Virus record (IMG/VR): IMGVR_UViG_3300018089_000001
Span: 64,001-128,000 of that record
From: a virus
Taxonomy: Duplodnaviria; Caudoviricetes
Strand: one strand, 5' to 3'
Length of the DNA: 64,000 nucleotides
Below are positions 11,224-11,313 of the stretch, in pieces. Below the pieces are notes generated by a model, which was given only the letters and a program-made list of their open reading frames with translations, made no database searches and was not told where the DNA came from. The position numbers were made by a program, and so were the translations under genes. The first letter of the stretch is position 1. Each line of letters opens with the position of its first letter.

Positions 11224-11313
11224 TGGCGCGCGGGAGGGAGTCGAACCCTCGCCTCCCGGGATGTGGAGAAGCCCCTCCAAGGGCCTCCCGGGCGTTCACC
11301 GAACTACCGCGCG
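11224..11313 (-). tRNA. Atypical tRNA-like RNA (Trp-like, CCA) with 3-nt D-loop and 17-nt insert in the anticodon arm
   Basis: CGCGCGG TA GTTC-GGT-GAAC G CCCGGGA-[GGCCCTTGGAGGGGCTT]CTCCACA-TCCCGGG AGGC GAGGG-TTCGACT-CCCTC CCGCGCG CCA (90 nt). Confidence 0.7.

Follow-up and report, generated by a model that had tools for sequence, protein, structure and literature searches.

Bacteriophages carry tRNA genes, and in a few of them these are accompanied by 'tRNA-like stable RNAs', whose role has never been established; examples are RNA C and RNA D of bacteriophage T4, which are encoded in its tRNA region. A preliminary description of a 64,000-nucleotide (nt) stretch of phage DNA (hereafter referred to as the window; bases 64001 to 128000 of a 185,486-base pair (bp) IMG/VR virus record) drew attention to a sequence resembling tRNA-Trp, in which a 17-nt insert could hide the anticodon, and read it as a switchable or intron-containing tRNA or a protected mimic. 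Does this locus encode a tRNA that is spliced or refolded to read tryptophan codons, or an RNA that has only the shape of a tRNA? Here we report a comparative sequence analysis, which suggests that the gene probably encodes a non-decoding, tRNA-shaped small RNA, a tRNA mimic, and that this RNA represents a small family, so far undescribed, that occurs in a group of large myophages with a high G+C content. The 17-nt 'insert' and its 'masking' of the anticodon would then be the two helices of an apical module rather than an intron.

The phage record has an estimated completeness of 91% and a G+C content of about 67%. Its minus-strand genes flanking the element include those for a tail sheath (16028 to 18382) and a T4-type baseplate protein (9912 to 10799). 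ARAGORN made 43 tRNA calls in the phage, 41 of which are clustered at 154.8–165.6 kb, outside the window, and the remaining two are odd ones within the tail and baseplate block (11144 to 11220 and 11225 to 11313). The latter call is the tRNA-shaped element, which is located inside a co-oriented late structural operon, 35 nt past the stop codon of a lipoprotein-like open reading frame (ORF); a hairpin immediately precedes it, and the next tRNA follows 4 nt downstream. Neither a sigma-70-type promoter nor an intrinsic terminator was found between 10700 and 12400. The lipoprotein-like ORF matched no Pfam or PHROG family and has no relatives in IMG/VR, and the hairpin that follows it has a longer counterpart at the same place in every relative. 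The phage encodes a tRNA-Tyr with a long variable arm (class II) and a tRNA-His with an encoded G−1, and its host is therefore a bacterium. One 69.5-kb contig of the related phage group (L135; GCA_035765595.1, contig DASTXG010001670.1) is binned with a metagenome-assembled genome of the Isosphaeraceae (Planctomycetota), a weak hint at the host group.

The features of the window copy are listed in Table 1, in which index 1 corresponds to position 11313 of the minus strand. The anatomy agrees with the preliminary description: the stem CCCGGGA/UCCCGGG is present, the D-loop read on the minus strand is GGU only, and the acceptor end is 'one nucleotide short' in that the 7-bp acceptor stem leads directly into CCA-C. 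The elements are joined by short connectors (UA after the acceptor 5′ strand, G before CCCGGGA and AGGC between the base stem and the T arm), and the apical stretch between the base-stem strands spans 24 nt. The insert can either fold on itself (GGCCCU/GGGGCU around UGGA) or pair its UGGAG with CUCCA, with constrained folds of −45.4 and −43.5 kcal/mol, respectively. The unconstrained optimum, at −46.0 kcal/mol, merges one of the competing pairings into a 10-bp hairpin, and the total folding energy is ordinary for the G+C content of the element (z = −1.2). A 10-nt direct repeat, CCCGGGAGGC, occurs twice inside the element on the minus strand (11283 to 11292 and 11251 to 11260; indices 22–31 and 54–63), with the copies 32 nt apart, and may be the trace of an internal duplication.

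Table 1 Coordinates of the tRNA-shaped RNA gene, its parts and surroundings in the window, and its family-A orthologues
Feature	Positions	Strand	Remarks
Whole tRNA-shaped RNA gene	11226–11313	−	88 nt, from acceptor 5′ end to conserved C discriminator; matched by the relatives-only covariance model; S1 GCCC:GGGC; S2 UGGAG:CUCCA
Acceptor stem, 5′ strand CGCGCGG	11307–11313	−	Pairs with 11227–11233; 7/7 pairs standard in 5 sequences, 4 double-changed
Acceptor stem, 3′ strand CCGCGCG	11227–11233	−	Indices C81–G87 against C1–G7; G at 11227 is the 'G73' of the preliminary description
Discriminator C	11226	−	C in 5/5 family-A members; CA-C next at 11225–11223
D-like hairpin GUUC-GGU-GAAC	11294–11304	−	Direct reading; loop is GGU only
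Base stem, 5′ strand CCCGGGA	11286–11292	−	Model-aligned to the 8–10-bp base stem of relatives
Base stem, 3′ strand UCCCGGG	11255–11261	−	Model-aligned, as for the 5′ strand
Helix S1, 5′ strand GCCC	11281–11284	−	Pairs with GGGC at 11271–11274; core of the earlier 'insert hairpin'
Helix S1, 3′ strand GGGC	11271–11274	−	Doubles as most of the S2 loop
Helix S2, 5′ strand UGGAG	11275–11279	−	Pairs with CUCCA at 11264–11268; the earlier 'mask'
Helix S2, 3′ strand CUCCA	11264–11268	−	Contains the supposed CCA anticodon
T arm GAGGG-UUCGACU-CCCUC	11234–11250	−	100% of cells paired, 2 pairs double-changed
Upstream hairpin GCGGACG-8 nt-CGUCCGC	11318–11339	−	Direct reading; between the lipoprotein-like ORF stop and the RNA gene
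Lipoprotein-like ORF	11348–11989	−	Stop codon 11348–11350; 213 aa, lipoprotein-type signal (…LLALASGC), glycine- and cysteine-rich body
Orthologue in L007	167–255		Same place as window copy; S1 GGGG:CCCC; S2 GUCCG:CGGAC
Orthologue in L019	1869–1959		Same place as window copy; S1 GGAG:CUUC; S2 GUCCG:CGGAC
Orthologue in L024	1843–1934		Same place as window copy; S1 GGGG:CCCC; S2 UUCCG:CGGGA
Orthologue in L131	1918–2007		Same place as window copy; S1 GGGG:CCCC; S2 GUUCC:GGAGC

Related contigs were reached through the baseplate protein in IMG/VR, JGI metagenomes and Logan assemblies; a comparison of this protein with species-representative genomes gave no match. In all of the related contigs, the neighbouring tRNA with its 9-nt anticodon loop is kept, directly ahead of a small ORF and the baseplate gene, and the segment preceding this tRNA varies. 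Four contigs with 71–86% baseplate identity (L007, L019, L024 and L131) contain a tRNA-shaped element of the same length, located between a lipoprotein-like ORF with its hairpin and the 9-nt-loop tRNA, small ORF and baseplate gene; together with the window copy they form family A. Three close relatives (L017, L020 and L023) lack the element and have a plain hairpin only, with the downstream tRNA kept, indicating that the element is dispensable or accessory. Two more distant relatives have a subfamily B (L005:1034–1123 and L135:693–782), with an 8-bp acceptor stem, the T arm GACG-UGCAAGU-CGUC and the base stem CCCGG/CCGGG. Exact-pattern scans of IMG/VR yielded, for the 9-nt-loop tRNA pattern, 106 stretches, none of which is tRNA-like; for the family-A apical motif, two chance matches, both within coding sequence; and for the family-B T arm, the contig of L005 itself, one identical copy and a tRNA-Lys that shares the T arm but is otherwise unrelated.

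We built a covariance model (R1) from the four family-A relatives only, leaving out the window copy. R1 matches the window exactly at 11226 to 11313 on the minus strand, over its full length, with 33.6 bits (E of about 1e-5), and the ordinary tRNAs of the phage and its relatives score at most 22.1 bits. In the R1 alignment, 95.8% of the cells are standard pairs and 12 of the 25 pairs are double-changed, a level reached by none of 500 shuffles, and slid-partner controls reduce the pairing to 41–63%; the sample is small, with five sequences of family A, four of them close kin, and two of family B. The covarying parts are the acceptor stem, with four compensated positions, the long base stem (five of eight pairs double-changed across family A) and the T arm. 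In L131, the sequence of the base stem (CUCCCAAACU/AGUUUGGGAG) is wholly replaced relative to CCCGGGA/UCCCGGG, and the stem is still a perfect 10 bp. The D region of the relatives is a linker containing YGGY without a stable D hairpin of its own. The match of the window to R1, together with the covariation, thus reveals a real RNA gene under selection for structure. Its outer tRNA frame is kept under selection; it consists of the 7-bp acceptor stem, the C discriminator, a linker or D hairpin that contains GG, and the T arm, whose loop is UUCGAYU. The tRNA shape recognized in the preliminary description is supported.

The centre of the RNA consists of a 7–10-bp base stem and a 21–25-nt apical module, instead of a 5-bp anticodon stem and a 7-nt loop. 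The apical module is arranged in the order S1 (4 nt), a 1–2-nt linker, S2 (5 nt), S1′ (4 nt), a 2–3-nt linker and S2′ (5 nt). The pairs of both S1 and S2 are standard in all five family-A sequences, with double changes at three of the four S1 positions and at all five S2 positions, although the apical register was set by hand after the five sequences had been viewed. The same two-helix arrangement arises in 0.04–0.7% of shuffles of the apical stretch, depending on the sequence (0.2% for the 24 nt of the window). The energy gap between the two states is small in four of the five members (1.9 kcal/mol in the window, and 1.1, 1.1 and 0.4 kcal/mol) and 5.1 kcal/mol in L019. Subfamily B is alike in design: S1 is UGGAAC:GUUCCA or UGGGAC:GUCCCA, which differ by one compensatory change (A-U to G-C) in this CCA-covering helix, S2 is CUGCA:UGCAG, and the states are 1.2 and 2.4 kcal/mol apart. 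The two competing pairings are real, and equivalents with compensatory changes are present in every homologue found; the complementarity, whose absence from homologues would have counted against the preliminary description, is kept.

The S2 5′ strand is the loop of S1, so that the two helices either alternate or form an H-type pseudoknot, in which the connecting loops would be 1 nt and 2 nt. A 2-nt loop across a 4–6-bp helix is very tight among solved pseudoknots, and we therefore lean towards alternation; a fully formed apical pseudoknot is doubtful. R1 leaves the 24 apical nucleotides of the window unaligned and MAFFT places the window apex in a register that fits neither helix, and the module was accordingly segmented by coordinates. 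By sequence, the UGGAG-6 nt-CUCCA of the window resembles the GGRG-6 nt-CYYC of the relatives and the UGGRAC-6 nt-GUYCCA of subfamily B; in this sequence-based reading, the strand complementary to the hairpin loop is found on its 3′ side in the relatives but on its 5′ side in the window copy. Since S2 of the window looks like S1 of the relatives by sequence, the window module may be a rearranged derivative, and its architectural match may be partly luck. Under either register, a hairpin and a strand complementary to its loop are kept. A more specific idea is that the module is a true two-state switch, held near balance by selection, in which one helix hides a YYYCA stretch, with the Trp or opal anticodon CCA/UCA, and the other exposes it. 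It would then act as a conditional bait for a host nuclease or other factor that recognizes the tRNA-Trp anticodon loop or, less likely, as a conditional reader of UGG or UGA; we regard this idea as having only a slim chance of being right.

The RNA very probably reads no codons, and is very probably neither a tRNA-Trp nor an intron-containing tRNA. It shares with canonical bacterial tRNA-Trp (RF00005) the 7-bp acceptor stem, the T arm with its 5-bp stem and UUCGAYU loop, the GG of the D region and a CCA at its centre. It differs in its C discriminator and in lacking a 5-bp stem topped by a 7-nt loop that contains U33 and R37. Loop length is 6 nt in four of the five family-A members, 7 nt in L131 and 8 nt in subfamily B, and these loops are carried on arms of at least 12 bp (in family A, the 7–10-bp base stem and five more pairs), so that no member has a standard 7-nt loop on an arm of normal length. 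In the structural register, the supposed CCA anticodon of the window is part of a helix strand, whereas the CCA or UCA of the relatives lies in the S1′/L3 loop segment; in the sequence-based register, CYYCA is the 3′ strand of a shared hairpin in all members. The bases that follow the discriminator C are CAC in the window and L007 and GAY in L019, L024 and L131, and a CCA 3′ end is thus not consistently encoded. The best Rfam match is tRNA-Sec, with 24.9 bits against a threshold of 47, and RF00005 misses the element but scores the neighbouring tRNA at 44.5 bits. A tRNA-Sec or allo-tRNA was rejected on its geometry (7/5, not 8/5, 9/4, 8/4 or 9/3), on this score (RF01852) and on the non-standard outermost pairs of the Rfam alignment. 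A tmRNA was likewise rejected: pair 3–70 is C-G in all five sequences, with no G3-U70, and ARAGORN with the -m option finds no tmRNA in the genome.

A genuine tRNA-Trp(CCA) that decodes UGG, with the 17-nt insert either spliced as an intron or refolding to hide and expose the anticodon, would account for several observations. Removal of the 17 nt at 11285 to 11269 (GGCCCUUGGAGGGGCUU) leaves the loop CUCCACA, and ARAGORN by default calls the product a 72-nt tRNA-Trp(CCA); no canonical tRNA-Trp is found among the 43 ARAGORN calls, in which the other 19 amino acids are covered; and the YYYCA stretch (CCA; UCA in L019), which is rich in pyrimidines, is present in the apical module of all seven homologues. 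However, the proposed identity fails at its main elements. G73 is an identity element of tryptophanyl-tRNA synthetase, but the G at 11227 that had been taken for it is paired with C1 and covaries (pair 1–72 is C-G in three family-A members and U-A in two) and so is not a discriminator, and after the deletion the putative anticodon stem would have 7 bp rather than 5 and position 37 would be C rather than a purine. When every contiguous stretch of 4–39 nt was removed from each homologue and the products were submitted to ARAGORN, no tRNA was found among about 6,800 variants of L007, L019, L024, L131, L005 and L135, so that single deletions rescue none of the six. For the window copy, 719 of about 1,100 variants were called tRNAs (194 Pro-UGG, 126 Ala-GGC and 91 Gly-UCC), and Trp resulted from six equivalent deletions only. 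The Trp product is thus one of many readings and carries little weight; because the window copy has a tidy D hairpin, almost any loop passes as a tRNA to ARAGORN. The appearance of a tRNA upon deletion of a stretch is poor evidence for an intron. The element does resemble archaeal and eukaryotic intron-containing pre-tRNAs in that a stretch next to an anticodon-like triplet pairs with it, but here the stretch is on the 5′ side of the loop instead of following position 37, and the relatives cannot be 'spliced' into tRNAs. An archaeal bulge-helix-bulge intron was rejected, as no 4-bp helix with 3-nt bulges was seen by eye in several registers and the tRNA set is bacterial; ARAGORN in intron mode (-i) found no intron and again called Pro(UGG); and a group I intron would be much longer than 17 nt. 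The search for processing enzymes suggested in the preliminary description, run on the 185-kb phage record with PF01974, PF01139 and PF09414, turned up neither RtcB nor an Rnl2-type ligase nor a splicing endonuclease. With a bacterial host and with the element missing from three close relatives, a tRNA-Trp is very unlikely. The class II-like tRNA-Pro(UGG) with a long variable arm that ARAGORN annotates, with the anticodon loop CUUGGAG, has next to no likelihood: it requires the anticodon stem to contain a G-G mismatch and leaves the D arm almost unpaired, its loop occurs in no relative, its best Rfam score is under threshold, and the phage already has two normal tRNA-Pro(UGG) genes.

The tRNA-shaped fold could also act in cis only, as an RNase P and RNase Z cutting signal and 3′-end protector that punctuates the late transcript, in which case the apical module would have no function. 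This is consistent with the position of the element in a co-oriented structural operon with no promoter or terminator nearby, with the conserved hairpin and tRNA on its two sides, with the persistence of both in relatives that lack the element, and with the acceptor and T arms, which are read by RNase P, being the best conserved. However, the adjacent 9-nt-loop tRNA already offers a processing site 4 nt away, and compensatory changes in the base stem and both apical helices would be needless for a cutting signal, which makes a purely cis role unlikely. Alternatively, the element could be a decaying tRNA gene without a present function, its centre consisting of insertion and deletion debris. 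Its presence varies among close relatives, its apical part is too diverged for model alignment, the direct repeat hints at duplication, and numerous further aberrant tRNA-like genes are found in related phages. Neutral decay would disrupt helices and not compensate for changes in them, whereas nearly half of the scaffold pairs are double-changed yet paired and the fully replaced base stem of L131 is perfect over its whole length; we therefore consider a relic improbable. Both readings, the main rivals of a tRNA mimic, are thus disfavoured by the compensatory evolution of the base stem and the apical helices. The preliminary description is confirmed in what it observed and partly supported in its interpretation: among its three suggestions, a protected mimic fits best and a switch-like element also fits, whereas an intron is not supported.

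If the gene encodes a tRNA mimic, a plausible course of events can be outlined. The RNA would be released from the late structural-gene transcript by RNase P cuts at both tRNA-like 5′ ends and by 3′ trimming, since 4 nt separate it from the tRNA downstream and the surrounding region showed neither a promoter nor a terminator. A CCA-adding enzyme, of which the phage encodes a nucleotidyltransferase homologue (genome 7659–8117, plus strand, outside the window), would complete the 3′ end, and the RNA would persist as a stable tRNA look-alike that is unable to decode and brings no tryptophan to the ribosome. Its conserved elbow and acceptor end would give it access to tRNA-binding sites, with the apical module as the specific part. 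It may thereby occupy a tRNA-binding protein as a bait or blocker, most plausibly a host tRNA-directed defence nuclease or a tRNA-handling enzyme. One candidate target is a host anticodon nuclease such as the VapC toxins, which have been reported to cut tRNA-Trp. Such a decoy role is our conjecture.

The neighbouring tRNA (11144 to 11220, minus strand) has the 9-nt anticodon loop ACUAUUCAG and encodes G73-CCA. It is far better conserved than the tRNA-shaped element and always lies just upstream of the small ORF and baseplate gene. Its loop core CUAUUCA is invariant and its stem covaries in the window, L007, L009, L004, L017, L019, L020, L022, L023, L024, L131 and L135; L005 and L015 have a loop of a second type, A[C/G]UAAUGAC. 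This tRNA is a candidate five-base decoder, frameshifter or protein target. Pairing between positions 2 and 9 of its loop was rejected, as further homologues show A-C, A-A and U-C. In Brevundimonas phage Bajun (L002:339–426; ON529858), an annotated 88-nt tRNA-Trp has a normal CUCCAAA loop and a class II-type long variable arm, and is followed by a tRNA-Gly(UCC). The neighbouring tRNA resembles the tRNA-Gly found in Brevundimonas and Ruegeria phages; this likeness, and that of the Bajun tRNA-Trp, was attributed to generic tRNA similarity rather than orthology.

Other unusual RNA genes accompany this group of phages. A third conserved structured element of about 110–115 nt lies between the tRNA-shaped RNA and the 9-nt-loop tRNA in L019 (1960–2076), L024 (1937–2046) and L131 (2010–2124), whereas the window and L007 lack it; a 7–11-bp stem closes the element, and its copies have the motifs UUCGAUYGGGCAUACCC and GUGGACACYGG in common. 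Arrays of four to six tRNA-like genes beside a normal tRNA-Lys(UUU) are present in the more distant relatives L005 (880–1368), L135 (532–945), L004 (1585–2176), L009 (1932–2453) and L015 (2343–2731). Most of these genes have abnormal centres, including a 6-bp D stem and 4-nt loop in the absence of any anticodon arm, hairpins capped by GNRA, 'loops' of 9, 10 and 19 nt, and tandem T-arm motifs. Outside the window, the 41-tRNA cluster contains an extra tRNA missed by ARAGORN (genome 162652–162722, minus strand; L143), which matches RF00005 with 37.7 bits; its 5-bp stem GCGGC/GCCGU encloses the 6-nt loop CCAAAC (alternatively, an 8-nt loop), and it ends in A73-CCA. In the window, two genes upstream of the odd tRNAs, a second Pth2-type peptidyl-tRNA hydrolase homologue (11889 to 12263, minus strand; core 11898 to 12188) gives a weak match of 23.2 bits, at the cut-off; the same 123-amino-acid gene, with a faint PTH2 signal, is syntenic in L017, L019, L020 and L131, and a strong Pth2 copy is located at genome 23338–23709.

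A comparison with known systems places the RNA among phage tRNA-like stable RNAs as a functional class rather than a sequence family: it is conserved, has a tRNA-like acceptor and T end and is very probably non-decoding, and its stability and accumulation are predicted. Bacteriophage T5 RNA1 (NC_005859, 30501–30644) is annotated in its record as a 'tRNA-like stable RNA with unknown functions'. Similar to T5 RNA1 and T4 RNAs C and D, the present element is a small RNA gene of a large lytic phage, located beside true tRNAs, with an acceptor and T end but no usable anticodon arm. In contrast to them, it has a defined 7–10-bp base stem and a compact two-helix apex, lies in the tail and baseplate block rather than in the main tRNA cluster, and has no sequence relation that we could see. 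The tRNA-like domain of tmRNA and YrlA RNA also keep the acceptor, T arm and elbow and have another structure in place of the anticodon arm, which in tmRNA is a long helix leading to a pseudoknot. Unlike tmRNA, however, the element has no tag reading frame, and unlike YrlA (RF02553), which gave no match at E values of up to 1 in 10600 to 11900, it ends in an acceptor stem rather than a Ro-binding stem. A TROVE/Ro60-like protein is encoded elsewhere in the phage, within the tRNA cluster (genome 158484–159095, minus strand, outside the window). A 2023 survey listed thousands of candidate structured RNAs in viruses, some of them 'tRNA or tRNA-like', without functions (PMC10690425). Our literature search found no description of a phage tRNA-like RNA in which a pseudoknot or switch replaces the anticodon arm.

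The layout of the family is clean: a tRNA frame kept by compensation carries a small module of two balanced, competing helices. Gene finders mislabel such genes, as in the ARAGORN call of the window copy as tRNA-Pro, and the size of the RNA suits direct structure probing and pull-downs. If the RNA does serve to bait a defence enzyme directed at tRNAs, counter-defence by RNA would join the protein-based forms that are already known.
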